DNA of 64,000 nt. It comes from Raillietiella orientalis. Its lineage: Eukaryota. The translations under genes and the position numbers were made by a program. Of the stretch, positions 7,039 through 62,200 are shown piece after piece. The DNA is taken from assembly GCA_036172245.1 (NCBI GenBank), contig JAYWIR010000036.1:1116001-1180000 (forward strand), read 5' to 3'. The notes under the pieces were generated by a model that worked only from the letters and a program-made list of their open reading frames with translations, was not told where the DNA came from and did no database searches. Positions within the stretch are counted from its first letter, which is position 1. Each line of letters opens with the position of its first letter.

Positions 7039-7099
7039 AGAAGATCTGCGGGCGTTTGGAAGAACAGAGGGAGACCCTCGGCTTGTGATGGAGCAGCCC

Positions 7100-16459: not shown

Positions 16460-16682
16460 ATGGAAGCGGCGGCGGAAGGTCGACGGCAACGGTTGGCGCT
16501 GGCGACGAGCCCCACCCACCCATTCCCTCTGCTGCCGCTGGCGGCGGTGGCTCCGGTGCTGCTGCTGCTTCTGCTGCTGCCGCCGCCGCTCTGCGCGCCC
16601 GCCTTCACCCCGCAGGAGCTGCTGGCCCTCGACGCTCCCAGGAAGACGTCGACTGACCTCGGCATGGACCCTTGCAAACACG
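16460..16682 (+). CDS. tld: Tolloid-like exon 1: signal peptide and prodomain start
   Basis: ATG, hydrophobic [17 protein letters not shown], the conserved MDPCK prodomain motif and a strong donor G|GTAAGC (phase 1). Confidence 0.85.
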
Positions 16683-25600: not shown

Positions 25601-28600
25601 CTGCTGGACCGGAAGGCACGTGCGGCTCGTCCGACGACGAAGGGCGCGCGCCCGCATCAGGGGCCGCTCCCACTTCCCACTAGCTGCTTGCCGGAGGGCT
25701 GGCAACGTCGCTATGTGGAACCGGACGCGCCTTAGGAGGCGCAGGTCACCGGCAGCCTCAGCCCCGTAGGCAACGAGAGGGAGCAGCTGCTTTGAGAGGC
25801 TGTTCGCGCCGGAAACGCCGCGGCCACCTAAGCGAAAGGGCAAAGGATGGCAAAGAGACGCCGCGGATGGACTTGCGGAGGGCACCGGCATCATAAGGGA
25901 GGCTGGTGGGGACCGCAGGTGGAGAGAGGGTGATCGAGAGTTACCAAGGGATGGCCCTGGACGCCCACCTGGGGAACCTGCAGGAAGAACATGGAAAGAA
26001 GAAGCCTCCACGAGTTAAGGGCAGCCGCACGATTCAAACTCCAAGGAGTTCCACCACAAGGGAGCCAAGGACACTTGGCTTCCTTGTGGTGGAAGTTGGA
26101 AGACGTGTGTCCACCGCCAGCATCAAAGCAGGGATGGTAGGTTCTTCATGATGCCTCGTCAGCACGGCAACTTCATCTGCAACCCCCTTGCCTGCATCCG
26201 AAAGGGAAAGCCTCTGTTTCCCGACCTTTGATGGGTTGCTTTTCTAGTTCCCCTGTAGATGTCCACCGTAGACCCAAAAACCCTCGGCCTGAGGTCGGAG
26301 CGCGCGCGCTACAGGTCTGGGAGATCGTCTGTCTCTCCTGGGGGGCAAAGTGATTCGCGGAAGAGTGACCCAGAGAGAAATAGAAGGCACTCTTGCGATT
26401 CCACAATTTTCTGGAACGAAGCTGCGGGCTTGGGTTGAGGCTGCCACCGCAGAAGGCTGAGAGGCGGTCCTGGGAGCTGAAAGATGCGCGGCATCTGTTT
26501 GAGGAGCAGCTCGCATCTCTTTGGGTCCTACCGCAGAGGCGTCTCCGAGAGAGCTGCGGAAGCACCACGTGCTAACCGCAATCCGAAAGATCATCGTGTC
26601 GATCCCCGCTCTCCAAGCAACAGCTTCCTCCCCTCTCCTGCGTCGCAGACGGCCTTGAGTGGATTTGCGTTCGGCGCTCTTGCTGTTGCAGCCGCCCGGC
26701 ACTTGGGAGTTCGGTTCACTTTAGCTGTAACCTGTTTTGGAAGGGGATTCTGATGCGGAGCCCAGGGTGGGGACCGATTGTTGCTGACTTACGGCTGTTG
26801 ACTTTCAGCGGAGGGCCACTCGAACAATCACTCTTGGTTTTCCTCTTTTGAATGTTTGCGGCGGAGGGACGTCGTTCCCTGCTGCGATCGGGGAAAGCGA
26901 GAATGTAGGGTGAAGGGAAGCTGGCATTCAGAGCTGCCACGGGAACGCGACGGAACAAAGAGATTTCGAGGGTAAAAGGGAGAGGGGGTGGTCTCTCTGT
27001 GCGTCGTCGGCGCCTCGCCGCACTCGTATTTGTGATGGTGGCTCGCCGTGGCTTCTTTGTCGTTCCTCACCCGCGGTCCCTCGAGGGATGCCGCTTTCGT
27101 GCGGCCGAAGCGCGAATCAGATGTGCGCTTCCGTGTGCGCTGGTCTCTTCTCTCGTCTTCCTGCGGCGACCCGTGTGATTTGCCCGCTTGGAGAACGGCG
27201 CCGTTACTCTGATTCGGCGGTTTGCTGCTTGGCGTCTCACTGTCGGGACTGCCCCACATTCCGCGCCCTTCGCAGGCGTCGTGGATTCGATCTATCTGCG
27301 CCAAGGCAGGCAAGCAGGAAGACTGCTGCTTCGCCATCGGAAACCTGGTTACTGCGACCGTTGCTGCCGGCAGATTTCCAGCCGGTCCCGCAGATGAAAT
27401 TCTGTGCCCCACTCCTCTGTGAGGTCGTAGCACCCATGGACATCCACGCGTCATTGCCGACGCTCTTCCATGTCTCTTTTTTTGGGAGGGGGTTCGTGCC
27501 AGCTAGGAGTGGCAGTTGGACTTGGCGAGCCGCTGACCAAATCGAAAGGTCGATCGTTCCTCGGGGCCTCCGTTTGGCGTCCGGTCACCACAACCGACCT
27601 CCCGCGTGGATCTTGCGCGCGCCGATCCAAGAACCAACTCAAGAGTCGATCGTCGGATCTGTTCCGTCAGAACTTTGCGCGGGGATTGAGAACTAGCTGG
27701 GACCGTGGCGTGAGCTTCAGGTTGTCCCGCGCAACTTCGGCGAATTTGCCGAAGAGATCCTCTTCGAGCCGGGAGACTCCAGGAATCGGGACAGCGGCGT
27801 GCTCGGAACATTCCTTTCCGAAACGGGCTGAGCGATTCGAGGTCCCGGCAGCGCTCCTGGAGCACGTGGTGGTCTTCCTGGAGGATGGCTGCCCGAGATG
27901 CTCGTTGCTGTGGCGCGGCGGCAACGCCGCGCACGCTCGTCAGCTGTTTTGGAATTTCGCTCCAGATGGCGGCGGTTCCTCGCAACAAGCCTTGCTCACG
28001 GGCAGTATCGTAGGCGAGGAAGGCGACTGAGCCTCGATTATTGCGAGTTGAAAACTTTTCCTCGCAACAGGTGCGTGCGCTCATGACCTTGCCCGCCCTA
28101 TCAAAGACCGCAGCGGCGGGAACCCAGTCGAGAGTGTCCGGCGAAAGGGTTCTCTGAGCGAGCGAAGAGGCTTCCGCTTGCAAGCGCTTCAGCGTCCAGG
28201 GTGCTGCGGGAGGCCGGGGTGGGCGCGGCTGCCTCCGGATGCCGGCGCTCGACGGTGCCAGCAAGTTCGCGGCGGGAAGGCGGATTTTGGTCCGGGGCAC
28301 CCGGTGGTGAAAGGACATGATTCCCGACGATCCCGCTTCTCCACGATTCTAGTCGCCAATTCTCCGGCGGTGTCAGGCTGCGGACGCGAGCACTCCTCCG
28401 CGGCCAGCGAAGGGGCATTACGTAGCGACTCCCAACGATATCTTCCGACTCGCCTTTAGGGCGTTGCGAGCACGCCAGCTGCGCCGAAGGGGGCACTGCC
28501 GACTCGCTCGGCTCGGCCTTCGTGTCTCCTCCACACCGAGGAAGAAGCGGCTATGAGATCAGTGCTCGCGACTCCCTCCGTCTGCCTTGCGCACGCCTCC

Positions 28601-31600
28601 GTCTCCTCTAGGAGACGGCGTCTTCAGGAGGCGAGGGGAGCCCTTATCCGAACGCGCCCCCATTGCGATGCGGGAGAAGGATAGGCCACTCTGGGTGCGG
28701 TCGATCAGAGTGTGTCTTAGCTTCCCCGAGCCGCACACTGCCTCGAGCCCGCGGGGAATTTAGCCCTTTTCGGCCTGCCCCTAATTTCGAGATGCTGACC
28801 CGGGTGTGATGTCTCTGATGTCCGGTGCCGCATCCAGGTCGGCTAGGCGGGAGAGGGCTGCTGCTGACCGCTCGAAGGAACCCTCTGATGCAAGCGGCGA
28901 CGGCGGCACTCGAAGGAGGTTCCGATCCCTCCCCCCGGTCGGGGCGCGAAGATGGCGGCGCCTGAGGCCGCACTCGGAGACGGAGAGCGAGGCCCTAGGG
29001 GGAGAAGTCCTATGGGTGGTCCCCTCCTGACAGGTAACATGGAAGGGTCTTCAGCAGCAAGCGTGCCGGGTAGCCTTCGAAAGCGGCGCGCGTTCTTTCA
29101 GGTGACCCGGGGCGGCGTCGAGTCCGGTGCCAGTCGCGAGAAGGATAAAGGCGAAGAGGGACGGCAGTTCCTTCCCTACAAATTTCCCTCCATCTCCTCC
29201 CTCCCGATCACCTGGGAGCCTTTGCCGCAGCGCCACGTGGCGGGGGGTTCAGGGAGAGGGAGCGAAGGGTGGAGGAGACCGCCTTCGCCCTGCACGTGCG
29301 CAGCGAAACCCGAGTCGCCGACGGGCTGGAGCTGTCCTTTTTCGGGGGAGGCCGTTCCCTCCCGCGCTCTGCATCTCGCCCGGAGGTGGCAGGGTGGAGG
29401 AGCTCGGCACGACCCTTCTGCGCGCGCGCCTACGGGGCTGCTGTCTCGGAGTTTCGAGCGCAGCGTCCTTGAAAGCGAACAGACGTGCCTCCCCTTTCCC
29501 CTGCAACTGCTGTGTTCTCGCCTTGTAACTTCAGGGAACTCCTGCTTTGTTCCTTTTTCCCTCGTATCCTCCCTTTTTCATCCTGATGCAGATCACAGGC
29601 AGCTCTGGCCGGCGGAAGCGCACCCATCGAGCAGCGGTGAGCGTGAACACGAAGCATCAACCAGTGCCATCTCTCCTCAGTGCTGAGAAGCGCAACTTTT
29701 TCTGATACAGTTTTTCTCTTTTGTTTCCTCCTAGCGCTCAAACGAATGTAGATCCTTTCAAGAACGAAAAGTGAACCTGCGGGCGAGTGTCACGGAAAAT
29801 CACGTGCACGAAAAGGCGACACACTTCGCGGCTGGTTCGAGAGCAGCGCGCGTGCGGAGTGCTCGCTCCGCCATCTCCCGTGAAGTGATGGAGCTCGCAC
29901 CTCTCTTTCTCAGGGCCCGGAAGAACGAGCCCAAGACGGTTCGCAAAACCCGCGCTGCCACAGCCCGCCTGGAACGCGTCTGGGATCACGGAGTCATCCC
30001 TTACGAGATCGACGCCAACTTCAGCGGATCCCACAAAGCCCTTTTCAAGCAGGCCATGAAGCACTGGGAGAACTTCACCTGCGTCAAGTTCGTCCGGAGG
30101 ACTTCGGAGCACCCCAGCTGGATTGTCTTCACAGAAAGATCTTGCGGGTAAAGAGGCAGGACGGGCGCGACTCAAGCGCCACTCCTGCAAGAGCAAGGAG
30201 GTGGCCAAGTCTTCCTTCTGACCTCTGACCCCCTTTCTCCCCTCTCCTCTTCCCTGGAGGAAGGGGGCCGTAAATTGCCTTGCCCCAGGAACCCACGGGG
30301 ACCCCTCACGGCCTCTCGGATTCTTCCCAGGCGCCTTCCTTCCTCCTCCTCCTCGTCTTTCTTTTCCACCTCCCTAGGGGCGGGTTCCTTTCCCGGCCCT
30401 CCACCCACGCGCTGACTGACGGATGTTCCACACTTCAGCTGCTGCTCGTTCGTGGGGAAGAGAGGGGACGGGCCACAGGCCATCTCCATCGGGAAGAACT
30501 GCGACAAGTTCGGCATCGTAGTCCACGAGCTGGGCCACGTGGTCGGGTTTTGGCACGAGCACACGCGTCCTGACAGAGACGACCACGTGCAGATACTCCG
30601 GGAAAGCATCATGCCAGGTGAGAACCTCCGGGGTTAAGTCTCCACCGATGGCTTCCGGCAGTGGGGGTAGCGGCGTAGATACAGCCCTCTCCATCTACCT
30701 GCCTGCCGGCGTTCCAAACGAAGGAAGGGGAGGGGGCTGGAAAGGGGTAGCAGCGGCGACGGGCAATGGGACCATTTTTCAGGTCAGGAGTACAATTTCA
30801 ACAAGCTGGACTCCACGGAGGTCAACTCCCTCGGCCAGCGGTACGACTACGACTCCATCATGCACTACGCCAGGAACACGTTCTCCAAGGTGCGTCCTCG
30901 AAGATTCTCCGCGCCCGCGCTCACCCCTGCGCCCTCCAGAGGACCAATCTGGACACCATCCTCCCGGTTGTGACCGAGTCACCCGGCAACAAGAGGCCCG
31001 AGATAGGTCAGAGGGTGCGCCTCAGCCAAGGGGACATTGCCCAGACGAACCTGCTCTACGGATGCCCGAGTGAGTGTGCGGGGAAGACCGGGGGAGGTGG
31101 GAGGAGGGCGCAAGTCGCTGCGAGAGGCGGTGGTGAGGTGGGGGGCACCTGCTTATGCCTTCCCGTGGTTGCCTAGTCGTGACCTCGCAGCGGGCCGTAG
31201 CTGGCGCACAGCGTGCCTCATCGTCTGAGGGTTGTGGGAGCTTTGCAATCGGACCTCCAGCAGGCGCTGGCATGCAGGTGTCGCCGTCGTCGTCGTCGTC
31301 GGTGCTCTTTCCTCTCCCGGGCAGACAGAGAAAACGGGATTTGTCTGCGTTGGCAGCCGTGTGACTGCGGTCTCCGCACGTGATGCCAAGCATCGCGGGT
31401 TCGAATTCCCACTTGGAGGATGGACGCCGAGAAACGGGATCTGCGCCATGGGTTCGAGTTCTCTACGCAAGATGAAGCTGGCTGGCCCATATTCCGGTGC
31501 GGCACTGATTGACACCTGGTCACGCCGGGGCGCTTATTTCTAAACCTGCATGTCTGTATCAGGACGTTTGATCCTGCTACGTTACTTATGAATACGAAAA

Positions 31601-34600
31601 GGAACCTGCCGGAGTCTGTCACGCAGGCCAGCAGGGTGCGCCTCGGCACTGGTGGAAGCCGGAAACCCCCGTTGACTGGCCAGGATTGGAATTTGACCCT
31701 CCGGGATCCTTCTAGGTCAAGGAACACTTCGGTGTTGTTCTTCTCCGGTTGTGAAGATGGAGCCGTTCCTCAGAGGAGGCAACCTCCATCTCGTACCACG
31801 GAGCTGGTCGATTGATACCTCTCCAAAGTGTGAAGAAGAGCGCTGCTTCCTTCGGGAGCGACCCTTCAGAGAAAATCTGGAAGCATCCCTTCGGGGAGTG
31901 CCATTCGGAGGAATAACAGGGAGCAGTTCTCTTTCGGTTTCCCTCCGGAGACAACCAGGGCGAGGGTTCTCTTCGGGATCCCCCTAACGAGCGTGAGAGG
32001 AACGAACTCTTTTCTCCGGAGCCCTTCCTGAATCCACGGGGTGATCTTCTCATGGGGCACCCCCTACCACTCCCTCGGGTGAACGGTGCTCAAGAGCTTC
32101 GTGAGTCCCCAAGCGAACGGTTCTTCAAAACTCAGCGTGCTCCCCCCAAAATGGAGAGGGCAGCGAGCCAGCGCTTGTCAAAAAGAGTCGTCTCTGGCAG
32201 CGGCGGCGGTCGGGAAGCGCCCTCCATCTCTGCCACATCCGCGGTGGGGTGGGGGTGGGGGTGGGTGGGCGGGGAGAAGGAATCAGAATTCTCGCAGCGC
32301 GCTCTCTGTTTCGTCCTCGACGAGCAGCGCCTCCTCCGCGGCTGATAAAGAGGTGACCAGGATGTGCTGCCGCAGCCGTACCGGGATCGACCCCCGTTGC
32401 GTCCCTCGCTGCGTTGCCTTTCGACCTCCGATAGGCATTTCCATGACGCGGACCTTTGCTGCCGCGGCTTTGGTGGGTCGAACCGCCGAGGTCTCCCCCA
32501 CCCCCGCACACCTATTCCAGTCAGTCGGCCGATCGACGTGTCAAACTCGTGAGCGGCTACGTAGGTGGGAAGCCGCCGCTCGGCGCGGACCGAAATGACA
32601 AGAATCGCATTAATGCAAGCAGCAGCAGCAGCAATGATGTCGATAAAGATGGCAGCAGCATCGACAGTGATGGCAACCATGTCAACGGAACCATAGCAAA
32701 CAAGGGGGTGACCGTGGCAGCAAACAGTAATAACGTTAGTAACGACAGTAATAATACCGGTGATGAATACTCCATCAATTGATAGTAAAAGCAGCTCCTC
32801 CACGACACCAGCAGAGTTATGTCCAATCCGACGCGCGCTCCCCCAGGCTTTACCTACTGAGAAGGGAAGTATCACGTGGGTGCTGAGCACATGCCCGCGG
32901 CTGTCCTCGCGTGCCGCACGGCCACTTCCTGAAGTGAGCCACGGACTCTAATACCCCCCGTAAAGAGCGCGTCGAGAGTTGCGTGCGTTCGCCGCGAGAT
33001 GACTCTACGGATGGCTCGCGGCTTCGGGTGCGCATGGGTTGGACGCTCTAGCGTCCGCGACCAGATGTTCCCGAGGACTTGCTGGGGATCCGCTTCATGT
33101 CTTACAAAGTGCGGATGCCGCACTTCACGAGCATCCGGGGTGAGCGCGAAGCGAGGAAGACTCTCTCCGGTGCCCCCTTCGAGCTTGGGCAACGACCCAG
33201 GAACGCTCGGAAATGGCGTAGAAGAGCCGCTCGAAGATCAGTGGGAAGGCACGCTTGTCCACTTTACTCCTGCTCGGCATTCTTCCCAGTGTTCTCCGAA
33301 GAATACGCATGCAGTCTGAACGCGCTCTTCCTTGATGCGCAACCAGAGGTGATCGGCGAAGCAGAGGTGTGCGGACCAGAGATGCTGCGGTCCTCATCAC
33401 TTCCTTGACGTTAACGCAGTGGAAACATCTTCGAGGCTGCTGCCATGGTCGAACAAAGTGAAACGCCCCTGCCCTAGTCAAAAGAGCTCAGTCTCGACTT
33501 CCGCTCCCCGTAAAGTTTTCACAGAGGATGGCGCAAAGCACCTCTGGAGCACCATTTGCTCCTCGGCCTTTTGGCTAAAATAAAAACGTAGTCGGGGTGC
33601 GCGAGTGAAGGGCACCTGCCCACAGTACATTCGTCGCCGTTTGCCTTCGTCCCTTCCAGATAGCTCCCGTCTCCTAATGAATCCTCTCATAATCTTGTCT
33701 TGGTGCTTTTTTGTGTGTTGCCAGAGTGCGGGAGGACGTACCAGGACACCTCAGCCACGTTCACCTCCCCTTTCTTCGCCGATCTCTCCTCGCCGAAAGC
33801 GGAGTTCAGCTGCGAGTGGCGCATAAGCGCCACCCACGGAGAAAGGATTGTGCTGAACATCACGGAGCTGGACATAACAGCAAGCGAAGACTGCAGCCTT
33901 TCGTACTTGGAAGTGCAGGATGGTTACTGGCACCGGTCTCAGGTCTTGGGTGCGTATGTGTCCGCCCGCCGCCTTCGGGGGCGCTTGGCGGTTGGCCGTT
34001 CCCGGAAGCTCCGAAGCGGTCCCAACACTGGACCTCGCCCTAGCCGCAGCCGCGAGGTTCGCGACCCGCGCTCTTATCGAACTCTTTGTCATGCGGGGAC
34101 GCTGTGCTCTTCCGCTGTCTTTTCGTCGGCCACGGCATCCAGGAAGCAACCTCAAAGGTGTCCTGAAAGCTTCGCTTTCGGGCTCTGTTCTGGTCTTCAG
34201 CCCGCCTGGCTTTGTCTGCTCCAGGTCTCCGGGTGGTATGAAAGGTGGCGCCAATTTTCGCGTGCTCGTCCTCCGCACCTCAGCGCTTATGATGCGGTCT
34301 TGGTAACACGTCAGACGTACTTTCTTCACTCATCTTTTCTGATCTCTCCCTCGAGGTACAGCCATTTGTTCCTCCTGGAGCTCTGTGGTCCCCGGTGCTA
34401 TGGTTTCTGAATCTCGGGCTCTCCAGCCATTAATCTGCCTTTCTTCATCTCCCCGGGAATACTCTTTTATCAGATGCTCCCCAAGTTCCAATACCAGGGT
34501 CTCAGTGCTCCAAGAAAAAGGACTTCATCTCGCGCTATCGATTTTGCGCGGGCCAAACATCTCTCATTCCGTCTTTCGCATCATGGCTCTCGGGTCCCCG

Positions 34601-40600: not shown

Positions 40601-43600
40601 CCCGCCGTGGACGCTCTCTCTTCCCGTGTCCGTGGAGTGAGAACGGAACATCCAGACCGGAAGAAAATCGGGATCGCTAACGGACGCGCGCGCGCTCGTG
40701 TATGCAGGAGCATTTCCTTGCATCCTCGAAAGCAGCCGCGCGCGTGCATCTTCCCAATTTCTCAGATCGCGTTGGAGCGGCGCTGAAAGATCGAGATGCT
40801 GGAAAGTGCGATCTCCAAGAACCGTCTCGGGTTTCCTGGACTTCGAGAGTGGGTGGCTGCGGAGTGGTCTCGGCACGGCAGGAAGTGATGACACTACTCG
40901 CGCGCCAGCCGTTCTGCAGGCTGTCATGCTGCAGGCGGTCATGCCAGGCGCACCCTGCCGCACGTGGCGAGCTTTTCCAATCGAAGATTCTGGCGCTGCC
41001 CTGTGAAAAGGAACCTTCCTTTCGTTCCTGCACTCTCGCGGCGGGCGGCAGGACCCTCTGCTTGCGAAGAAGAGGAAAAAACTGGTAAAAAGTTGGACAC
41101 CCAACCATCAACTCGAGTGCTCCCCTCCGGTCTGCTCCACCTCGGATCTTCCCTTAACGTGTGACAAGCGCGAGACAAAGCAATTTCTAGACGTCAGCGA
41201 AGATGCATCAGCCGTCGACACCCAGCTTTCGCATGCATCTGTTATCGATCAGCTGCGTTCGGCTCCGTGAGCCTTTTTTGTCAGCCAGCGCAAGATGCCA
41301 TGGTACATGCTCATTGCTCGTTCCGTTCCTCGGGAGGTTCCGAGATTTCCACCCGTGAAATCGGGAATGGCTTCCGGGACTTGGCTTTCGAGTGTCATCT
41401 TTGACAGAGCGCCCGAGGATGAAGATTTCATGCCAGTTCGTGGTCCAATTTGCATATCTCTCAAGAATCGGCTGTAATAGCAATCGATTCCGATTCCGTT
41501 CGAGGGGGAAGGGGGAAGCGAACGGGAGTTTCCCCTGTCTCATTAGTCAGACATGGCCGTCATGGGCGGATGAGGTGATTCGCGTGACGCCAAGCCTCAG
41601 ACAGGAGGGTGCGATCGGCAGAAGCCACCCCCTTCCGAGAGCAGGATGGCGCGTCGTGGAGATTCAACTCTTCCTTTCGTGTTCAGGGAACTCAGCTTCC
41701 CCTTCTTGCACCTCGATCGCTGTCGTGGTCTTTGAACCGGACGTTCTGGCACGGGCCAGAGATCGACCTGGTCCAGCTTTCATGGAGACAGGAAGAAAAG
41801 GAAGCCGCATTTCTTTCCTTTTTGTCCTTCGCCAACGCATCTGGACTGACTGGTCTTCCCTGACTCCTCTTCGCTGTCGGGGATGTGGCAGCAGCATCCC
41901 TTCTGATCCCCAAACGAAACCTCCGTCTCTCTGTTCTCGCATTCCAGAATTCGACGAGTGCGACACACCTGATCACGGATGCGAGCAGAAGTGCATCAAC
42001 ACCCTGGGAGGATACGAGTGCGAATGCAACATCGGCTACGAGCTCGAAAGCAACGGGAAGAACTGCACGGGTGAGCGGAGGTCTCCTCCAGGTCCCCCGG
42101 GTTCGGGTCCGTTTCCGTGTCATCCTGAGTGATTCTTCGCAGCTCCCCCTGGGGAAGGCTGCGGGAACCTCATTCCCAGTCTGGGGCTCTGGTTCTCTCC
42201 GAACCGATAGGTGACTCTTGTTAGATGCTTGCGGAGGAATCATCTCGGCCTCCAATGGTACCATCATCAGCCCCAACTTCCCCGAGTTGTACCCGACCAA
42301 CAAGAGGTGCATCTGGCTGATCGTTGCGCCTCCCCAATACACCATCACCCTCAACTTCACCCACTTTGACTTGGAGGGAAACAACGTGAGTTTCGCGGCG
42401 GGGAAAAACGACATTACGGGGAGGAGGGGCAAGGGAGGGGGGGAAGAAGTTTTTTTTTTTTTTTCTCTGCTGGAACCCCCGCTTCCATCTTGCGGTGATT
42501 TACAAGCACCCTCCCTCGTTTCCTCCCGGTACAACTTACGGTCTGTTTCCCTCTTCTTCGGGACTCCAGCCCGGCAGCAAGCGCTCCGCCTCCGGTAATT
42601 CTCTTGTCCAGCCTTCGGCAGATCTCTCTTTTCGGGATGTCCCGAGTCGCTGCTTCCTTGATTTATGGTTGGCTGCCAGAAGTGGGGATGTTTGCAGACA
42701 CACAGATGGGCTTTGGCAATCGCCGCAGCAAAGCGGGATGCGAGCCGTGCTGTTAGGTATGCTGGTGGCGATTCAGAAAAACCGAAGAGGAGGTCCGCGG
42801 CCCTCGGGCGGATGCAGGGTCCGCGTGGATGTCTTTAGTGATTATTGACGGCAGCGCGAGATCGTTGCACGAGACAAATGTCCCCCATTAATGAATTTCA
42901 GGATATGCGGAGCGCAAGTGGACCCTAATTCTTGACGGAGGACCGCGGGAAATGTATCATCTTACGAGCGCGGAATTCCCGACACGCGAGAGGCGCGTCG
43001 GGATGAGGAGAGTGGTAGCTATTCCGTCCAAAGAGCAGGAGGCCCGTACGCTCGCGACGCGACGCAGGATGACTCCCGGATCGGCGCGCGATACGCGGGA
43101 GTCGGCACCTTTCACCGGCAGGGAAATCGCGGCGGGGGGGGGGGAATACCTGGAGAGAAGATTCACCAGTTGAGTGGATTGCGCGGAATCCTTTCTTCTC
43201 GACTGTGGTGTGTCTGACTGGAATACCAGGTAGACTTCGTTAGACGAGGAGACCACCGGAGGAGGGATCTTGGCTCCGCAGGAAGTGTCCGAGGAACCGC
43301 CGTAGACCGATTTTTCCGGCTGGTCGAGAGAAAACCGATCACCACCTCCCGGGGGCTTCCCGTGCGCGGGACGGCGTAGCGCGCGGATGCGTGGAGCGGG
43401 GGAACCTGCCAGGAAAGAAAGGCAGAAGCCTGAACATCCTCTTCCGGATCCGCAGCGCGACCCCCATCCCCCTTCCTTCCTTCCTTCCTCCCTCCCTCAA
43501 GCCTTGGCGAATCGCCCCTGCGGAAAGTCGGAATTCCGCTTCGAACAACCTGCTTTGTTTGCAAAAGAACCAGCTTGCATTGGAGTGCCTTTTTGTTGCT

Positions 43601-46600
43601 GTTGCTGTTGTTGCCTGAGTTTGTTCTCTGTGTAGGTGGAATGCGATTACGACAAAGTCAATGTTACGAGTATTGTTGATGACGGTAGAGTTGTCAAGCA
43701 TGGTACTTTTTGCGGTTCCAGAATTCCCAATGCAATAACGTCCGAAGGGAACAGTCTCTCGATAGAATTCATCACCGACAACTCTGTACAGCACATCGGG
43801 TTCGCCGCCATATTTTTCGCAGGTCAGTTCGCCACGGTTCGATCCCCCCTTTCGTCACCTGGAAGAGCGTGGCCTGCAGATCAGGACGAGTGTGCCGTGG
43901 ACAACGGGGGCTGCCAGCACGTTTGCCGCAACGTCGTGGGCTCGTACCAGTGCCTCTGCAACAGCGGCTTCACCCTGCACGAGAACGGCCACCTTTGCAA
44001 GGAAGGAGGATGCAAGTTCGAAGTCACCTCCCCCTCCGGAGAAATCAAAACTCCCAACTTTCCGAATCCGTACCCGTCACGCAAGGACTGCACGTGGTCG
44101 CTGAAGACCGTCAAGGGACACCGGATCAAAATCGTAAGTTGGGGGAGGGGGGCGCACCCCAGGAGCCTCGAGGGGTTCGTCTGCGGCATACCGACGGATG
44201 AACTTGCACTCTGCGCCCACAGACGTTCCTGGAATTCCACGTGGAGCTCCACCAGGAGTGCAGCTATGACTTCGTCTCGGTCTACGACGGTTCATCGAGC
44301 AAGTCGACCCTGGGCACTTTCTGCGGAGCCAAGATACCTCCTCCGGTGGTCTCCTCTTCCAACGAACTCTACCTGGTTTTCCAGTCGGACACCACGGTTG
44401 AGAAGAAAGGATTCCGGGCCATCCACTCAACTGGTGAATCTTCTCTCCAGATATTCCCCGCCGCGGTACCCTGCTTGTGAGAGTTGCTTACCCCTGCGTA
44501 TCGCGCGCCGATCCGGAGGTCATCCCGCACCGCGTCGCGCGCATCCCCCGGCTCTTTGGACGGAAGAAAAGAACCGCTGGTCCACTGAGTCAGAGTGGGA
44601 GGAGCTCCTGGTTTAAGTGGCTCGCTTCCACTCCCAGAGTGCCCCGGCGTGTTTTGAGTGTACTCAGCTCGAGCACGACCCTAGAACGCTCGGCGTTTCC
44701 AGGGTGCAGATCCCGTAGAGGAATCCCCCGCGAGCGTCGTCATGACGGTCGGTTGCGTGGGCTTCTCTCGTCCGTTTCTCGGATGCCTGGAACCGCTCGC
44801 ATGACAATGCTGGCCTAGGGATGCCAGCGATACCAGGTCTGCATGCGGGGGAACGGGGATCAGTTCGCGCGCGCGCGCGGCTTCCTGTTGTCGCTGGTGC
44901 TGACAGATGAGTCGTGCCTATCCCACGCGAGCTGGGCGGTGTGCTTGGAGGAACGGCGACTTCCACCGGCGAAAGGGAAACGGTTCTGACCTCGAGGAAG
45001 GTCGGATGGGGCGCACCGGACTTTGGAGCAGCGGAGCTTCAGAATGGAACGTGGGGCAGACGCAGACTCCCCTGTCACTCCGGGAGTTCCTCAGCGCCTC
45101 GGCTCGCGAACCACATGGACGCGGGTGCGCCGCCGCCGCTCGCCTTCGAGCCCTTCCTTCTTGTCTTTGACTTGTTCTATTCGCTTGCCCTGCTCCCGTC
45201 AGAACCACGGAGGTCGGCGTTGCAGCGTTCCTCAGCTGGAGGGATGCGGCAGCAGGGTGGCAGCAGCATACCTGCCAGGTCCTGGTCGAATCCTGGGCTT
45301 GCAGCTGGAGTTCCGCTCGGTCATCGGGGATCCCGGCTCGTCCTCCGTCTGGCATTTTCACTGCTGCCGCCCCTGCTGCCCATGGAGAAGCTCGACGGCG
45401 TGTAAACTTCAGGTATGGGGAAGAATCTTTCGGTTCCTGTCAAGGTACGCGGTCCTTGCGAAGCGCTTTGTCTTGCGGAACGCTCTGGGATCACAGCGGG
45501 GGCAGCCTTGAAGAAATCAAGCGCTGATTTTCTTCAAGCTTTTCCTAAAAGGAGTACCAAGGATGGAAAGGTATGGGGCGCTGCGTGCCGGCGTGGGGCA
45601 TTCTTCAAGGGACCATCGGTTTCCCATATCGGTCGTTGGCGACGAAGGACACCATCAGCGAGAGGGCTCCCGAGAGAGAGGGTGCTATCGGCACTGTTGA
45701 CCGCTCGTTCGGACTCGCACGAAGTTTGCGGCGCATGCGCTGGAGGCGAGTGATACGCCCGAGATCTCTCCTTCGCCTTCTCCCGATTATCTGCCTTCTT
45801 CTGGGTCAGGGAGCACCCTTCCTGATTGATCCTCTCTTCATGCTTCCTTGTAGCTCCCGACAGCTCCCGGAGCTGGGAAGGAGTTGAGCTGAGGTGGAAA
45901 ACACACGCGGGAGGGGTTCGCGACTCAACCTCTCCTGAGCGGACGGGGTAATCGGCTCGGAAAGGACTGACATCTCCAGAAGGGGTCGTCATTCTTTCCA
46001 TCCCCCCCTCCCACCTGCGTGGGAGCAAGAGTCTCGCAGTGTCACCGGACCGGACCTGCGTCCTCAGTTCCCTCCGCTTCGCCGGACCTCCTAAGAGAGC
46101 AGCGGTCTTTCGCGCATGCTCGTCCGAATGTCCTTCTGGCGTTTTCCCTGGGCCTTCAAGACGTGATGGACTCCGCGGTGCATGCGTGCGTGCGTGCGTG
46201 CGTGCATGCGTGCTTTGCAGTCCTCGTGTCGAAGAACCACCTTAATCTCTTTCTCTCTTTCTTTTTTTTTTGTCTCGGGAGTTCAGTGTGCGGCGGACGC
46301 TTACAGGCCGTGTCTGAACTTCAGAAACTGTACTCCCACGTCAAGTTCGGGGACCATGACTACGACAAGGGTGAAGACTGCGAGTGGATCATCGAGTCCG
46401 CGGAACAGAAAGGCATCTTCTTCAAGTTCTTGACGTTCGAGCTGGAGGAGGAGGTGGAGTGCAACTACGACTCTGTCGAGATTTTCGTCAACTACCCGGA
46501 CAGCGCGGTGTCGCTGGGCAAGTTCTGCGGCCACGAGGTGAGAGAGCCCCGGGAGAAGGGGAAACAGAAGGGGCGAGTGGGCGCTATCCGCTCCGCGCTT

Positions 46601-49600
46601 CCCGCTCTGCTTCGTCCCTCCCGTCCTCAGGATATCCTCCGCTCGTCTTTGACCTCTTCCTTCCTGGTCCGAGTGCTTCATAGACTGAGGGTTCCCTTCG
46701 CCCCATTCGTTCCCGCTCGCGCACTTGTGAGGGCTCCCGGTTTCAGCAGCCGAGGGGCCCTCAGGTGGCGTTCTTCCACCTTCTCGTCGTCCGCCCCTGG
46801 GGCAGAAGCAGAAAATAACGCCGCGCAGGGTTGCCCACCGTCCTCTCCTTGCGCTCTAATGCTCGCTTTGTAGCCGCTTCTTCGACGGTCCAGCTCTTCC
46901 TGTCGGCGATCAGCGAAAATAGAGAGCAGTTCGCGGCCGATTGCTGCACCTAGAGGGGGGGGGGGCGATGCGAGCTGCAGAGACACGGGAGAGGTCAGCT
47001 ATCTCCTCCCAGTCATAAGGTTCCTTTATTTTGAAGTCGACGCTCCGGGCCCTTCCAGGAATCAAGGAGCGCTGGTTCCCTTTGGGGGTGCCCCCCGGTT
47101 GTGAAAATGGGGCCATCCTCCCCTCGTGGGCTACTCTCCATCACGTACGGAAGGTACGAACCACGGAACTGGTTGGTACTTTCTTCTGGAGATTGCTTCT
47201 CCGGAGTGTAAGAAGCGCTCTTCTCCCTACGGGGTTCTCTTCAGAGGAGGGATCAAGGAGAGGATTTCTTGCGGGAGATTCCCTTGGAGAGAATAAGGAA
47301 GAGCTTCTGTTCGGGGTTCCCTTTAAAGACAACCAGGGTGGAGGGTTTCCTTCAGTGTTCTTTGCCAAGAGTGAAAGAGGAACGGACCCCTTCCTCCGGA
47401 GCCTTCCTGGATTCATGGGGTGGTCCCTTCCCCGTGAACACACTAACATGAAGTATAGCACGCATCCTCGAGTAGCGTGGACGGTTCTTAAAGGGCTTCG
47501 TGAGCCCCTAGTCGAACGGTTCTTGAGTACTTAGAGAGCCAAAAAAAAAGAAAAATCTCGGAAGAAAATAGCGAAACAGAAGAACCCAAAGGGATTTTCC
47601 ATCATCCTTCTCGATGGACCAGTGCTCTCTTGTAGTCCATCTGCTATGCTTGCCGATCCTGAAACACTTCTTGGTCTGCAACGCTGAACGAAAATGGTTC
47701 CGAGGACTTCCTCGTACAAACCGTCCAATGGAGGTGGTCGTCAAAGAGCACCAGGTCATTCTCCGGAGTCAAGCTGCTTCTCGCGTTTTTGAAGCAGGAT
47801 GGAACTTCTTCATACCGATGCCAGATAACCAATTGTGTGCATCTGTGACTCCCATGGTCCTGGACCCAGAATGGGAAATGCCATTAGGACCAGTAGGAGA
47901 GATCCGTTCCTTCTTGAGGCTGTCTCTTCGCCTTCAAAATCTCGAAGAACACCCTCCGTCAGAGCATTCGGGTTGGCGCACGGCACGCCCTGCCCCGTGC
48001 CGGAGGGCGAGTGGGCACGGACAAACGGATAGGAGAAGCTTGCCGTTTGCTTCAAAAAAAAAAAAGAGAAAGGTGCAGCGAACACTGGCAATTACAGGAA
48101 TCATCGAGTCCAAGCCATGGCCAGCTGCAACTCGGCATGTTCATCTCCTCCATTCCGATCACGGGAGCACTTGAGAGCCAGGGACTCCCAGGAACCTCCC
48201 AGGACAGGCTGCCGCGGGTCGGATTGTAACTCTTGCGCCGCCTGAAGATTGAGGAGAAGCTTCAGATGAGCACCACTTACCAGGAATGCTCACCAAGGAC
48301 ACGTCGGACACATGCGTCGGATTCCGTCGGAGGACAGGGGTACCGTGATGCTTTTTGCGTGCTCTGCGTGTATGCGTCAGGGAGACGGAATGTCCTGCTC
48401 GGGATCATTTTGAACATTTCCTGGATAATCCGTTCAGCCGATCAGCTTCGCCGAGGATGCGTTCCTGAGTCTGAACGCTCGCGCTCTCCTCTGAGATTGA
48501 TCCAGATGCTGCCGCAGGCAGAATGTGAAGCTCCGGGAAGGAGTATTTCTCTTCCTAACAGCTGCTACTCACGAGGGAGCGCCCAGGAGACAACCCATTG
48601 CTTTTCCTGTCACCCGCAATCGAATTCCTAGCGCTTTAGTCCCTGTTTTTATGCTTGCGCTGGTGGCAATGTGGCTGCGGTCTCTCCACGCCTGGCACCG
48701 GGTATCGCGGGTTCGAATCCTCACGTGAAGGATCGGCGCCAGAGAAATGGGTGTGTCGTAGGTTAGAGCCCCTCCCGCAAGATGACGCTGATTGGCCCAT
48801 AGAATTTGGGTGCGGCACTGGAGGAAACCAGAAATTCCCGAATGTCTGCCCCCGATGAGTGACCGGAATGGGAAGTTGACCTCCGATTGTGAATATGGAG
48901 ATGTCTCCCCCTCGAAGGGGGGGGGATCCTCTCCATCTCGTACCACGGAGCTGGTCGACTGATACCTCTCCAGAGTTTGAAGAAACGCGCTGCTCCCTTC
49001 GGGAGGAACCCTTTAGAGGAACAACAGGGAGCGGTTCCTTTGCGAGTTACCTCCGGAGAAGAAACAATGGAACGGGCTCCTCCAGGGGATCCCTCCAGAG
49101 AGAATAAGGAAGAGGTGGTTCCCTTAGAAGACTACCAGGGCGAGGGTTGCCTTCGAGGTTCTCCTACCAAGCGTGAGAAGAACGGACTCCTCGCTCCGGA
49201 TCCCTGTCCGGGTTCATGGAGTGGTCCCCTCTCAGTGTTACCCCCTAACTGGAAAAGTTGCTACACACACGCCTCCTCCGCTGGCGTGGACGTGCTTCAA
49301 GAGCTTCGTGAGCCCCTAGACGAACGGTTTTTGAGTACTCAAGACTGGTCCCTGTCTTAAGAGAGACGGGAAGTCAGCTTTGGTAACTCGCTTCTGCCTC
49401 GTTTCGTGCCTCTGGGTCACTGGGGCGGTGGAGGATGTGCAGTGCTCCTTGAAGTCTTCAAGGATGGCCATCCATCGCGCTTCTCCCTGCGTACACGCCC
49501 CGTTTTCTTCTTCCACCTGTTCCGTGGTGTCGTTCTTTGCCCATCCGAGTCCCCAGAGAAAGGAGTGTCTGCTCGTGGAGAAACCCCTTCCGGAACAGAC

Positions 49601-57899: not shown

Positions 57900-60800
57900 G
57901 TTGAGAATAACACAAAAAAGTTCATTGAGGATGACCACCGGCACGCAGACCGGCTTTCCAAAAAGTAGGGAATGGAGAGAGAGGACAATAAATAGAGTAA
58001 ACAAAAGGGAGAGGGTAGGGATAACAGTTCTGAGCATAGCACGTCCCTTGCTTCCTGAAAGCGGCGGTGCGTGGTGGCGATCTTACGGATGACTTGTCGT
58101 CCTCATCGAGGCGGCTGCCGAGTGGGTGGCGCCTCCCTTCTCTGCGAGCGAGACTCCATCACAGAGTGTGCCGTCGCGCTGGCGCGGATGCAGCAGCACC
58201 TCGTTGCCATAACGGTGTCTGCTGCCAGTCCGCCCCGCGTGAAGATGTGCCGCAGCGAATCCCCGCCACTGTCCTCGAGAGCACCGCAGTGTCCAACAGG
58301 AGACGCGGGAACGATCACATCGCCCGCGCCTGAAACATTTCAAAGGAGCAACTCCCCCGCGGGAAAACAGGCACCTCATTCTGTTGTCATGGGATTCCCA
58401 CTGCAGAAACAGCAAGCAGAACGTCCCGTTTCCACCGGAGCGGGAACACGGAAGTGTCTGCACGCAGGGAAGGGACGCAAGTTCTTGGGGGAGGAGCACA
58501 CCGAGCAGGTCCGTCCACCGAAGGAGTCCCTGCGCCTGGGAACGAGGAGTCGCGGCACCCCCCGACTCTCTTGTTCTGCAGCTGTCCAGGAGTTTCTCTA
58601 CTCTTGCAATCCAGCATAACTCCCTCCCCTCTTGTCGGCTGTTGAACACTGTTTGCCCTGGGAGCAGACAGTGATACGGCAAAGGGCGAGACGGCTGTCC
58701 GGGACCACTGCGTCCAGTCCTGCAGGAGATCTTCCATCGGGTTGCAGAGCAGTTGCTCCGGACTCACTTCCAGAGTGGCAAACCGGGACTCCAGCGTCTC
58801 TTGCTGTCAAGCATCCCAGTTCTGAGAGCGGCAGGAGATCCACGGGTGAGCAGCTTCCAGCAGTGAGGACGGATGCCTCACGCGCCTAATCTGCGGGACT
58901 GGCGAGCAGTTTGCGCTTACTCGTGCCTCCTGCTCCTCCTGGAAAAGGTGGCTGCGACCGTCTCGCCCCGGATTGCCCGGTCATCCGTCTGAAATGAATC
59001 AAATCGCGTCGGGTGCGGTCCAGCATGCGTGAGATGAGGAGCTGTGAAACAGAATGGATTTGCACGCTCCGAAGGAAAAGGCACGACCGAAGCGGCAGTA
59101 CGTAGATGGCGGAGGGATGGGATGAACCCCAACGAGATGGGAACGCTTTGTCGTTGCCACGAGCTCGGTAGAAACAACGGCAAAAAAGCACGCGCATGCG
59201 CATTCAAGGCTCTGCTGCCGACTAGGAATCTGGTGCGCTTTCCGACTCTCTCGTCTCTGCGGTAGGTTTCCTGGAAAAAACGGAGGGGTTTCCACGGATC
59301 CATCGGATGCTGGTTCACGGAAGAGGCTGCGAGCTAACACCTCTACTGTGGTTTCTCCCCCCCACAACATCATTTCTGGAAATGTGGGTCGCATTGTCTG
59401 ATTTAATGATTCTCCGGCTATCGATTTGCCATCAGGCACGTTTCGACTTGATGAAACCCGATGCTTGCGTGGGTGTCGATCCCAGCCGGGAGAACGAACC
59501 CCCCTGCAGAAGACCGCATTGCGGAACTCGCGTGCAGGATGACCGGTCACCTAATGGTTTACTGCACTTTTCTGTTTTTTCACAGAAAACCTTTTTTACG
59601 GCACGCGAAGTCTTTTTTGATCCTCTCCCCCCCCTTTTTTTCGTCACCTGCTTCCCTTGTTTTCAGGTGATGACGCCATTCTTGGAGCAGGGTTGTAGAA
59701 GAAGCAGGCGGAGGAAACGGCCGAATGCGCTGGGAGGCGCTCACCAGGCTACGACGGGGTTGGTGCCGATGGCTATGGTTGTTGTAGAAGACATCCACCG
59801 GCTCGTGGAGCACTCGTTAGCACGCAGGCCATTCGCCGCCGCACCTGTCCTGATCTCCACTCTCGTCGGACTTCCAGCGTTTTTTTTTTCGTTTTGCTTT
59901 GCCTCGCGTCTGATCCTTCAGACTTTTATCGATTCGTTTCAAGGAGCAGCAGGGGACCCGGTGATGTCCAGCAGAAGGTGGTTATGTGGTACGGACCGAA
60001 ACTGCTGGTGATGTCTTCTTCTTTGCCATGGGGAGGTGGCGGCGGCGGCGAGGAGGTGGGCCAGGGCGTGTGGCGTGTTGGCAATTCGGGGTGGGGTCCA
60101 TCTGCAAAGGTGCTGAAGAGAGCATCCTTGGGGTTGCGATGGAGAGAGAGGGCGAGGCCACTCCTCCCCCTTCCGGGCCTTCCGCGGAAGCGCCCCCTGG
60201 GACGCGGTACGCAGCCAATGACTACGGTGTGGCTGTCTCGCCGGGTAGCTGGCTCCCGTGGACCCAATAGCTGCGTTGCGTGGAGTAATAGCGGTTGTCG
60301 GGGCGAAGGTGGCCAGCTCTCGTCTCCTGGCCACTTGAGATGCAATGGCGCTGCCGTCCTCGTGATGGGGTGACGGCCGCGCTGCTTAGGAGACGATCGC
60401 CAGTCACTACCCGTGCCATACGGGAAGACGACGTGCTCGCCTGCAACGACGTTGCTGAGTATTGAAGAACCGTTCACCTTAAGGGGGGCTCACAAAGCTG
60501 TTTGACACTGATCCGAGGGTGCGTGTGACTATTCAAGTAAGCGGGTACCCTGGGAGCGGATCACCCTATGAATCCATGAAGGCACCGGCGGGAAGAGCCC
60601 TCTTGCGCTCGGTAGGGAACCTCGAAAAGAACCTCTTCCTCATTCTCACTTAAAGGACCCCTCCAAAAGGGCTCACTCCTCTCTGGAGGGAACCCGCATG
60701 GGAACCGCTCCCTGTTTCCTCCTCTAAAGAGAACCCCGAAGGAATGCTTCCAAATTTCGTTGAAGGCCACTTCCTGAAGGGCGCAGCGTTCCCCTGACAC

Positions 60801-62200
60801 TCTGAAGAGGCAACACCCCAAGTGGGATATCAACCAGCTCCGTGGTATCGCTCCATATACACAATTGGAGGGGAACCACGGAGGGTCGACTTGCAATCCC
60901 AGACACTCATCGGAAGGATCAGCTTCCACCAGTAACGCACCTGAAGCTCATGGGTCAACCAGGGTCGTCCTCAAGGGGAGGGAGGCGACTGGAAACTCAC
61001 AACGCTCCCTCTATTCACGGTGTGGATGCTTCGTCCCGGATGGAATTCTAACCCGCGACACTCGGTGCCGTGTGGCCTCCAACGCGGGCTTTCGCACGTC
61101 TCAACAGTACATCTGAAGGAGAAGGAAGCGGACAGATGAAGGGATGGTTGGTCTTCCTCCCCCTTTTTCTGGAAGAGGGCGAGAGGAAGAGAGAAAGGGG
61201 TGCTGCGCAAATGGCCATCGTCCCGTGGCGAGGTTGGCATTCGTGGCGCAGACAGCTACGGCAGCGACGACCGTGCAGTGACCAATGAGCCGGAGCCTCG
61301 GCTGCGACTCCATCCTGCGGGGACGCGATGGCGCTCCATCAGGTCTGCGCTGAAGAACGCGCAGCACCCCTCCGAGCGCAGAACGTCCAGTCTGCGATTC
61401 CACCGGATGAAGGGGGAAGGAACAGGGCCACAGAGGAAGGTACGGAGGTCGTAGGCCACTCGCTCCTTTGGGGGCCAGCAGTAGCGTGTGCTCAGTTTTT
61501 TGGGGATCCGTTGGATGTGCCGGCCCGTCAGTGGCGAGAGTTCACCGCGAACCTCCCTCGTTCAACCCGACTTTGGCCAGCAAGATGGCTCCGAGTCATC
61601 GAGGGATCCACTGGAAATTTTCCGTCATCCAGGATGCCACTCGAAACGGGCCCGACTATGAATCCTAAGGGAGAGCGCAGACCGTCGCAAATGCGGGGAA
61701 CGGGAGTCTCTCCCGCACCTGATCGTGGAAACGTTTCGGAACGACTCTCCGGATCCAAGTTGGCACTCCCAGGGACGTTTTACGTCTTTTCTTTGAGCGG
61801 GACGCCTTGCAGCCAACCGCAGCCCCGGCAGTGCTGTGCTGCGTCTACGGAATAGCAGCGGCCTGGAGTGAAGCCGATGTAGGGAGAGACTGGAGGGACT
61901 CTATCCAGTTCGCATCTCGCTTTCTGCGGATGGCGGCGAGACGTCCCCACCTGGGACCTATTCGGAAGGACCTAGCCGGCACTCTGGAAAGGATGCAGAC
62001 TCCCTCCAGCGGACAGTGATTTTCACCCCGACCCTCCCAAGATTTTTATTTCCTTTTATGTGCTCTTTTATTTTTCATTTTTCCTTTTGTTTTCTCCCCG
62101 TCCCCTCCGCCACCGAGGTGACCCCCACCGGTCTGCGCACCGGCGACTCGACAGCTCCGTGAGCAAACGGGACGCCGCAGTTCCACGTGTCCTACCACAA
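57900..62200 (+). mobile_element. Decayed, internally deleted L1/Tx1-like LINE with a SINE inserted
   Basis: HLMVYCTF (SDH-like endonuclease end, ~59550), FLWKR...PSSRGEVGI (FLW...P...GGLG-like, ~61165-61240), RKCGERESLPHLIVE zinc finger (~61686-61730). The C-terminus and 3' UTR are homologous to 10200-10470. The 5' boundary is uncertain. Confidence 0.6.
60541..61089 (-). mobile_element. tRNA-derived SINE copy 6 (diverged)
   Basis: Reverse strand GCCCGCGTTGGAGGCC head, GGGTTAGAATTCC B-box, core TACCACGGAGCTGGTTGAT. Confidence 0.75.

Follow-up and report, generated by a model that had tools for sequence, protein, structure and literature searches.

An inverted intronic copy of the CUB4 exon and its splice donor in a tolloid-like gene of Raillietiella orientalis: probably a tolerated and decaying duplication

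In Dscam, one docking site competes for many selector sequences located upstream of mutually exclusive exons. Long-range intramolecular pairing in pre-mRNA, able to affect splice site choice, is also known from the PCCRs, which are defined by conservation or covariation in the account given of them (PMC8052449). Intronic inverted-repeat pairs, in the examples described, consist of complementary segments about 1 kb apart, with exons between them and a stable stem as the predicted fold; the arms are transposon copies located in introns on both sides (PMC13019027; PMC4201285). Pairing between exon and intron of the same transcript is found in the editing site complementary sequences (ECS) of ADAR substrates, such as the GluR-B Q/R and R/G sites (PMC1920255) and the distant intronic element of Gabra-3 (PMC3479170), where double-stranded RNA surrounds coding positions and the splice site. 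The known elements of this kind are short, imperfect and conserved, and usually lie in the adjacent intron. Drosophila hpRNA loci are inverted gene duplicates that yield long hairpins with homology to a protein-coding gene; as outlined in the source, they are transcription units of their own, have two non-coding arms and act in trans by siRNAs (PMC10317233). In the BMP-1/mammalian tolloid variants, loss of C-terminal non-catalytic domains alters activity, and the mammalian short form described ends after CUB3 by means of a dedicated alternative exon (PMC3878766).

The pair of sequences reported here lies within one gene in a window of 64,000 nucleotides, the whole stretch of DNA that was analysed. 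The gene is tolloid/tolkin-like. Searches by tblastn with two tolloid homologues, P0003 and P0010 (the latter with five CUB stretches, an astacin domain and EGFs), placed an astacin domain (29.8-31.1 kb), five CUBs and two EGFs on the plus strand in tolloid order, which is the Tolloid/BMP-1 architecture (astacin-CUB1-CUB2-EGF-CUB3-EGF-CUB4-CUB5). Pfam CUB was detected in four of the six exon translations scanned, in addition to exon B with EGF and CUB. For the exon B translation (P0002), 45 of 48 candidates were tolloid-type homologues at E<=0.001; the named full-length matches among these 45 were tolloid, tolkin, BMP-1 or unnamed metalloendopeptidase-type proteins, and one weak partial match was a matrilin. 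The copied exon, exon C, matched residues 811-880 of P0003 and 919-988 of P0010, the latter following EGF2 (Pfam stretch 837-872), in agreement with its assignment to CUB4 in a preliminary description of this DNA. When the ORF covering exon C was used to search for proteins of similar length, one candidate came back and nothing was significant; the 23 loci found in metagenome contigs, the best of which show 43-70% identity over 23-40 residues (at the top, 70% over 23 or 54% over 37 residues), include no close relative. The features of the region are the following.

42225-42385, plus strand: upstream exon, N-terminal half of CUB3, ending in phase 0 (Pfam CUB, E 1.2e-14; tblastn)
42386-43635, plus strand: host intron of the inverted copy, 1250 nt (junction letters)
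43022-43310, minus strand: left arm, the decayed copy in intron 42386-43635 (repeat search, blastn, alignment)
43636-43822, plus strand: exon A, C-terminal half of CUB3, 187 nt, in the predicted loop (Pfam CUB, E 3.3e-11; tblastn; junctions)
43880-44133, plus strand: exon B, EGF2 and N-terminal half of CUB4, 254 nt, in the predicted loop (Pfam FXa_inhibition/EGF_CA; CUB positions 1-41)
44223-44433, plus strand: exon C, C-terminal half of CUB4, 211 nt, ending in phase 1 (Pfam CUB, E 1.1e-18, profile positions 42-108)
44277-44565, plus strand: right arm, the source segment, comprising the last 157 nt of exon C (44277-44433) and the first 132 nt of the intron behind it (44434-44565)
44421-44450, plus strand: 30-nt perfect complementarity across the exon C donor, every base from -13 to +17 being paired to 43150-43179 in the minimum-free-energy fold
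46287-46537, plus strand: exon D, N-terminal half of CUB5, needing a phase-1 donor upstream (Pfam CUB, E 1e-15; tblastn)

Exons A, B and C are joined by introns of 57 and 89 nt, and the exon C donor reads CTG/GTGAAT at 44433/44434, with GT at 44434-44435 (tblastn and junction reading). The preliminary description had presented 43022-43310 as an inverted copy of 44277-44565, covering 157 nt of exon and about 130 nt of intron, with the arms about 970 nt apart in one pre-mRNA. All of this was borne out. In the repeat search over the window, five collinear inverted segments (21 nt at 90%, 81 nt at 90%, 74 nt at 92%, 74 nt at 81% and 21 nt at 90% identity) tile the two intervals; blastn of each arm against the window hit its partner alone, with 269 columns and 82.5% identity, gaps included (E 1.5e-74). 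Global alignment of the arms yielded 304 columns, with 241 identical positions, 33 mismatches and 30 gap columns, divided into an exon part (129, 13 and 17, respectively) and an intron part (112, 20 and 13). The arms are separated by 966 nt and both belong to the sense strand of one transcription unit, the copy starting 637 nt past the donor at 42385/42386 and ending 325 nt before the acceptor at 43635/43636. The loop, described earlier as containing two exons, does enclose two whole exons, and also takes in the first 54 nt of exon C. A third copy of either arm was not found in the 64-kb window by blastn of each arm or by self-blast of the window, and homology past either arm boundary was absent at word size 7 and E<=1, both ends being sharp. 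Neither arm matches any Rfam family; the sole Rfam match in the window is a U4 snRNA located elsewhere.

Read on the minus strand, the left arm begins with part of a CUB4 pseudo-exon (about 43167-43310), behind which come the copied donor and 132 nt of intron (43022-43166). The inclusion of intron sequence, running 132 nt past the donor, identifies the copy as a DNA-level duplication and not a retrocopy, as had been proposed, and a poly(A) tail is absent from the end of the copy. Decay is evident from a 15-nt in-frame deletion, a frame-breaking insertion of 2 nt (AC) by slippage and poly-C expansions; at least five indel events separate the arms. Divergence of the intron part amounts to 0.152 (JC 0.169), and the third positions of the exon part give a JC distance of 0.257. 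In the exon part 14 of 46 codons differ, ten by synonymous changes, all at third positions, and four by non-synonymous ones. At these four, as judged by eye against three homologues, the residue that is conserved, or one similar to it, stands in the functional exon (D and G kept; F against F/Y; L against L/M), and it is therefore simplest to place the four changes on the copy. The left arm is the sole minus-strand HSP among the 38 tblastn HSPs of P0003. Three other accounts of the arm were considered and rejected. An antisense CUB gene on the minus strand does not agree with what the ORF over the arm on that strand contains, a CUB remnant scoring below threshold (E 0.0057; 17.4 bits, the cut-off being 21.4). 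Transposon capture was discarded since the left arm is not framed by terminal or direct repeats and the sequence on either side of it occurs once in the window, and a longer original duplication was discarded for want of homology beyond the arm boundaries.

Folding of 43000-44600, suggested in the preliminary description, yields a very stable predicted duplex that buries the donor, with 250 inter-arm pairs in the minimum-free-energy structure. Cofolding of the arms gave -474 kcal/mol against -225±8 for 20 shuffles; folded alone, the arms gave -107.5 and -91.6 kcal/mol. Lying about 1 kb apart in one pre-mRNA, the arms are thus able to form an imperfect duplex of about 250 bp, and this is probably present as dsRNA in some transcripts. 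A duplex this long is expected to undergo promiscuous, not site-selective, ADAR editing. The longest perfect run between the arms is 30 nt, ends at 44450 and spans the donor. The reported perfect match at 44421-44450 is therefore real and straddles the donor, but its length is not significant: P=0.34 with indels taken as single events, and 0.04 only when each gap column is counted as a separate mismatch.

Comparison with the described systems brings out how the arrangement differs. It resembles the intronic inverted-repeat pairs in spacing, in bracketing exons and in its predicted stem. However, here the arms stem from self-duplication of the gene and one of them is an exon with its donor, so that the structure would occlude a splice site and not merely approximate sites. 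The pairing of intronic sequence with an exon of the same transcript to give dsRNA, as in an ADAR ECS, is present as a prediction (250 pairs), but it extends over about 250 bp, comes from two exons upstream and is derived from a duplication. Like the hpRNA loci it is an inverted duplicate with a long hairpin, whereas it does not form a separate non-coding unit holding both arms; the host gene uses one of the arms as a functional exon, and the hairpin would be confined to the unspliced nuclear precursor. Where PCCRs are recognized by conservation or covariation, this is a single pair known from one sequence. An analogy with Dscam drawn earlier does not hold, as only two copies occur in the window, a docking/selector series and mutually exclusive exons are absent, and the exons in the loop encode different domains (C-terminal half of CUB3; EGF2 with the N-terminal half of CUB4) instead of alternative duplicates. 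In contrast to the mammalian short form, failure of the CUB4 donor would here give CUB4 with a 14-residue intron-encoded tail, or a frameshift. A literature search, not exhaustive, found no paper on an inverted exon-donor self-duplication in a tolloid gene, and nothing that combines an editing site complementary sequence with an inverted intronic duplication.

These observations are best accounted for, with moderate confidence, by an old inverted intragenic segmental duplication that is tolerated and decaying and is not a maintained switch. A 289-bp piece of DNA, comprising the 3' part of exon C, the donor and the start of the next intron, would have been copied backwards two exons upstream and would since then have decayed as a non-coding pseudo-exon fragment. 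The predicted duplex would enclose exons A and B and bury the exon C donor; forming in a fraction of transcripts, it may yield by-products, namely A-to-I editing of a promiscuous kind, a degree of delayed or aberrant splicing, or circular RNA, the element being tolerated without a selected function. The duplication with its origin in DNA, its decay and its position are shown by the sequence, as is the thermodynamic preference for the duplex; that this forms in vivo, and that it lacks a selected function, we infer. Against a relic speaks the skew of the exon-part differences towards synonymous sites, taken up below. It may also be held that the inverted repeat has escaped deletion while each lineage gathered about 0.085 substitutions per site, and that a repeat which buries the donor of an essential developmental gene persists; this is compatible with maintenance.

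Maintenance is the core of the alternative put forward in the preliminary description, a cis-antisense element that could mask the donor, drive editing of CUB4 codons or generate endo-siRNAs. As a selected switch, the arm would be kept for controlling the 44433 donor or ADAR editing of CUB4 codons, and would thereby tune the amount of full-length tolloid (CUB4 and CUB5). Its premise that the C-terminal CUBs of Tolloid matter is sound, the host gene being a tolloid: these domains are important for Sog binding in Drosophila, CUB4 and CUB5 being the ones needed according to the source (PMC4337604). As loss of C-terminal domains alters the activity of tolloid-family proteins, an element at the CUB4 donor could matter. 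In the predicted duplex, which is very stable, a perfect helix of 30 bp encloses the donor; this donor lacks the +5 G present in 8 of the 11 donors read in the gene, for which reason it should be sensitive to occlusion. Failure of this donor would have marked effects, intron read-through meeting a stop at 44478-44480 and skipping of exon C (211 nt) shifting the frame, and the repeat has survived roughly 15% divergence. However, the perfect run is within chance, several indels create bulges, and wobble-preserving changes are not enriched, the 19 transitions between the arms being divided into 9 that are G:U-compatible and 10 that give A:C mismatches. Skipping products are moreover out of frame, whether exon C alone (211 nt) or A, B and C together (652 nt) are lost, and look like damage instead of a designed isoform. 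A selected switch is thus regarded as unlikely. A more specific form of it, in which the gene has made its own antisense guide from the inverted copy and use of the weak GUGAAU donor hinges on duplex unwinding or ADAR, is considered very unlikely. A-to-I editing at +5 (44438, paired to 43162) would then make the donor read as the consensus-like GUGAGU, and dsRNA-handling enzymes would determine how much of the product is full-length tolloid, whose CUB4 and CUB5 allow binding of a Sog/Chordin-type substrate, and how much is truncated or NMD-targeted. In the data at hand the element does not stand out from a relic that is merely tolerated, and selection for a switch, although possible, finds no support in them.

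Other origins and effects of the pair were weighed against the tolerated duplication as well. The fragment could derive from a paralogous or formerly coding tolloid copy that was under protein constraint before truncation, for instance an inverted duplicate of which part was deleted, or a piece inserted ectopically from a second tolloid/tolkin gene. The excess of synonymous third-position differences (10 of 14) has a P of about 0.04 under a copy that was always neutral, which suggests that the copy may have been constrained during part of its history; the 15-nt deletion is in frame and the sole frame break is a dinucleotide slippage. The statistic is weak, however: measured against the intron, 4 changes at first and second positions are observed where 7.8 would be expected (P=0.11). 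Furthermore, similarity in the intron part matches that of the third positions, as expected from a copy of this very locus, and tblastn detected no further minus-strand tolloid remnant in the window. Such a source is judged improbable. Loop-out or back-splicing, in which the arms bring the acceptor at 43635/43636 to the donor at 44433/44434 and produce a 652-nt A-B-C circular RNA or skipping, also seems improbable as the main consequence of the pair. The arms do bracket three exons joined by introns of 57 and 89 nt (exons A, 43636-43822, and B, 43880-44133, lie between them together with the initial 54 nt of exon C), intronic inverted repeats of 30-40 nt suffice for circularization in the system studied (PMC4201285), and inverted Alu pairs promote exon skipping in the reported cases (PMC13019027). 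In those systems, however, both arms are intronic and the splice sites are free, whereas the right arm here includes 157 nt of exon and a donor that is fully paired in the fold, and it should hinder U1 binding and not aid back-splicing. An assembly artefact from a chimeric or fold-back read is extremely improbable. Fold-back chimeras are known to leave inverted duplications spaced about 1 kb, but fold-backs are near-identical, while the arms differ at 33 positions and by their indels; the window contains no N, and both junctions lie in continuous unique sequence.

The inverted copy as first described is accurate, and a function as a switch is a possible candidate only. If the duplex forms and acts, the locus would be a clean natural case in which a single event, the inverted duplication of an exon-donor junction, gives birth to a control helix for editing or splicing; the C-terminal CUBs of the gene concerned decide substrate binding. 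If it is inert, it would serve as a calibration case, in which a self-complementary stretch of about 250 bp that buries a constitutive donor has been tolerated through about 15% neutral divergence. Since the gene is essential to development, such inertness would speak for a neutralization of these structures by helicases or by co-transcriptional splicing.

The host of the inverted pair is a tolloid/tolkin-like gene on the forward strand. Of 48 candidate proteins retrieved with the translation of its EGF2 and CUB4 N-half exon (43882-44136; P0002), 45 reached E<=0.001. Astacin, CUB and EGF domains are present in the full-length matches, which, where named in the source, are tolloid-like, tolkin or BMP-1-like proteins of crustaceans, insects, molluscs and annelids. 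The best full-length matches, summed over exons, are insect proteins of about 60% identity, so that the gene most likely belongs to a pancrustacean arthropod. Exon order was mapped by tblastn of two tolloid homologues, P0003 and P0010, against the window. Pfam confirmed CUB domains on the exon translations and found five CUB and two EGF domains in P0010.

Coding segments of the tolloid gene, from tblastn with P0003 and P0010
29.8-31.1 kb, + strand, astacin
33.7 and 37.1 kb, + strand, CUB1
38.6 and 39.7 kb, + strand, CUB2
41.9 kb, + strand, EGF1
42225-42385 and 43636-43822, + strand, CUB3 (the latter exon A)
43880-44133, + strand, EGF2 and CUB4 N-half (exon B)
44223-44433, + strand, CUB4 C-half (exon C)
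46287-46537 and about 49.9 kb, + strand, CUB5

The first coding exon is a probable feature near 16.6 kb, in the GC-rich stretch at about 14000-18000; an ORF at 15515-16708 carries a terminal '...MDPCK...' motif resembling the N-terminal region of homologues. GC content is 0.65-0.67 in this stretch and 0.72 at 1-2000, against a window background of about 0.57; such a GC content is uncommonly high for an arthropod-like genome. At 27988-28119 (+), Rfam matches a U4 spliceosomal snRNA over its full length (RF00015, 52.2 bits vs a gathering score of 46, E 8.3e-09), in sense orientation just 5' of the first astacin exon and in what is probably a large 5' intron of the gene. Upstream of the tolloid gene, 5040-5579 and 10013-10552 form a 540-nt inverted repeat of 99.4% identity with 4.4 kb between its arms, possibly a foldback-type element of young age, or else an inverted duplication that arose recently. 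None of nine ORFs inside it (145-330 aa) matched a Pfam family, and copies of a dispersed repeat, in inverted orientation and more divergent, occur in its interior. A dispersed repeat family of ~67-77% identity has copies at 6354-7042, 9361-9840, 31346-32046, 47198-47531, 48649-49339 and 60677-61068, several of them in tolloid introns and mostly in direct mutual orientation.

Within the tolloid gene an exon-donor junction has been duplicated in inverted orientation, and this pair is real, not due to chance, and unique within the window. An inverted repeat search of 42000-45600 returned five collinear segments with 81-92% complementarity, which jointly tile 43022-43310 against 44277-44565. When each arm was compared by blastn with the whole 64 kb window, its partner was the sole match (269 columns, 82.5% identity including gaps, E 1.5e-74), and self-blast of the window revealed no third copy. 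Between 29.8 kb and 50 kb, from the first to the last mapped coding exon, the same self-blast gave no other inverted pair at E<=1e-5 whose arms both fall in that interval. In a global alignment of the arms, 241 of 304 columns are identical; 33 are mismatched and 30 contain gaps. The coordinates in the preliminary description proved accurate wherever they could be checked, and its spacing of about 970 nt corresponds to 966 nt. The window contains no N, and a simple fold-back assembly chimera is ruled out by the degree of divergence between the arms.

The duplicated stretch begins 54 nt into exon C, which tblastn and Pfam assign to CUB4, as had been proposed, and more precisely to its second half; it ends 132 nt into the following intron. 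Because intron sequence is included, the source was DNA and not mRNA, in line with the earlier view that this is no retrocopy. The copy sits inverted in the 1250-nt intron separating the two CUB3 exons, beginning 637 nt past the donor and ending 325 nt short of the acceptor. Homology stops sharply at both ends, with none found beyond either boundary by a sensitive search. Nothing points to a transposon carrier, since the repeat search of 42000-45600 detected no terminal or direct repeats around the copy and its flanks are unique within the window by self-blast. The exon-derived part differs at 13 of 142 aligned positions and the intron-derived part at 20 of 132 (JC 0.169). The copy is thus decayed, with a 15-nt in-frame deletion, a frame-breaking 2-nt AC slippage, a poly-C expansion and further indels; in the minus-strand ORF across it, what is left of the CUB signal stays below threshold (E 0.0057, 17.4 bits vs a cut-off of 21.4).

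Both arms belong to the sense strand of a single transcription unit, and the minimum-free-energy fold of 43000-44600 as RNA, suggested in the preliminary description, predicts a stable duplex of 250 inter-arm pairs running from 43022:44565 to 43310:44277. The arms cofold at -474 kcal/mol, compared to -225±8 over 20 shuffles; folded singly, the arms reach -107.5 and -91.6. Every base of 44421-44450 is paired in this fold, so that the exon C donor (CTG/GTGAAT at 44433/44434) lies in a perfect 30-bp helix. Enclosed in the predicted loop are the two exons expected there, A (187 nt) and B (254 nt), along with introns of only 57 and 89 nt and the 54 nt with which exon C begins. The right arm is complete 642-930 nt beyond the acceptor of the copy-bearing intron. 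Transcription of this distance takes tens of seconds while splicing half-times in insects are in the order of minutes, which makes it plausible that some of the transcripts form the duplex.

It had been speculated that pairing of the arm with the exon and donor could act as an RNA-duplex switch. A selected switch is a less likely possibility, and none of the available evidence supports it; the perfect 30-nt match over the donor is indeed present. Its length is unremarkable with indels counted as single events (P 0.34), and P falls to 0.04 only when each gap column is taken as an independent mismatch. Maintained pairing should make G:U-keeping transitions exceed those giving A:C, but among the 33 mismatches 9 transitions are wobble-compatible (U:G 5, G:U 4) and 10 disruptive (A:C 5, C:A 5), hence no enrichment between the arms. 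In 46 comparable codons (44277-44432 vs 43167-43310), 10 of 14 differences are synonymous third-position changes and 4 non-synonymous, a weak signal (P 0.04-0.11) accompanied by the in-frame deletion. Simulating a copy that is neutral throughout and an exon that tolerates synonymous changes only gives a P of about 0.04 for at least 10 third-position differences; when the intron serves as neutral reference, 4 first- and second-position changes stand against an expected 7.8 (P=0.11). Where the amino acids differ, at four sites, the residue in the functional exon is the conserved one, or a similar one, seen in the homologues P0003, P0010 and P0013 (compared by eye; three of the four retrieved). 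Only coding constraint, and not selection on pairing, would produce the third-position skew, which either weakly hints that the fragment belonged to a coding copy for some of its past or is due to chance. No close relatives for comparison were found: the CUB or EGF loci among metagenome contigs are all distant, and searching for proteins of similar length yielded nothing.

Among known systems, the architecture resembles that of inverted-repeat pairs described as looping out exons or promoting circular RNAs, but splice sites remain free in those described, while the tolloid pair buries a donor (PMC13019027; PMC4201285). It also resembles the ADAR editing-site complementary sequences described so far, although the tolloid arm is far longer, more distant and visibly born by duplication (PMC1920255; PMC3479170). 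The suggested likeness to Dscam does not hold, since only one pair exists and a cluster of alternative exons is lacking; an hpRNA locus is rejected because one arm is a working exon.

Were the exon C donor blocked, read-through past 44433 would add 14 codons up to a stop at 44478-44480, and the product would be without CUB5. Skipping of exon C (211 nt) or of A, B and C (652 nt) would shift the frame; skipping of B and C (465 nt), at the cost of EGF2 and CUB4, is the only skip that would keep it. The donor GTGAAT is without the +5 G found in 8 of 11 donors readable in the tolloid gene, and A-to-I conversion at this position, 44438, would make it read as a consensus-like donor, which is the boldest and a rather improbable reading of the element. 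Sog binding in Drosophila is described as requiring both CUB4 and CUB5 (PMC4337604), and mammalian BMP-1 is described as a splice variant without three non-catalytic domains and with the highest catalytic activity (PMC3878766). On balance, and with moderate confidence, the best explanation of the inverted copy in R. orientalis is a relic of some age that has been tolerated, and dsRNA is probably made in some precursors of this tolloid gene.
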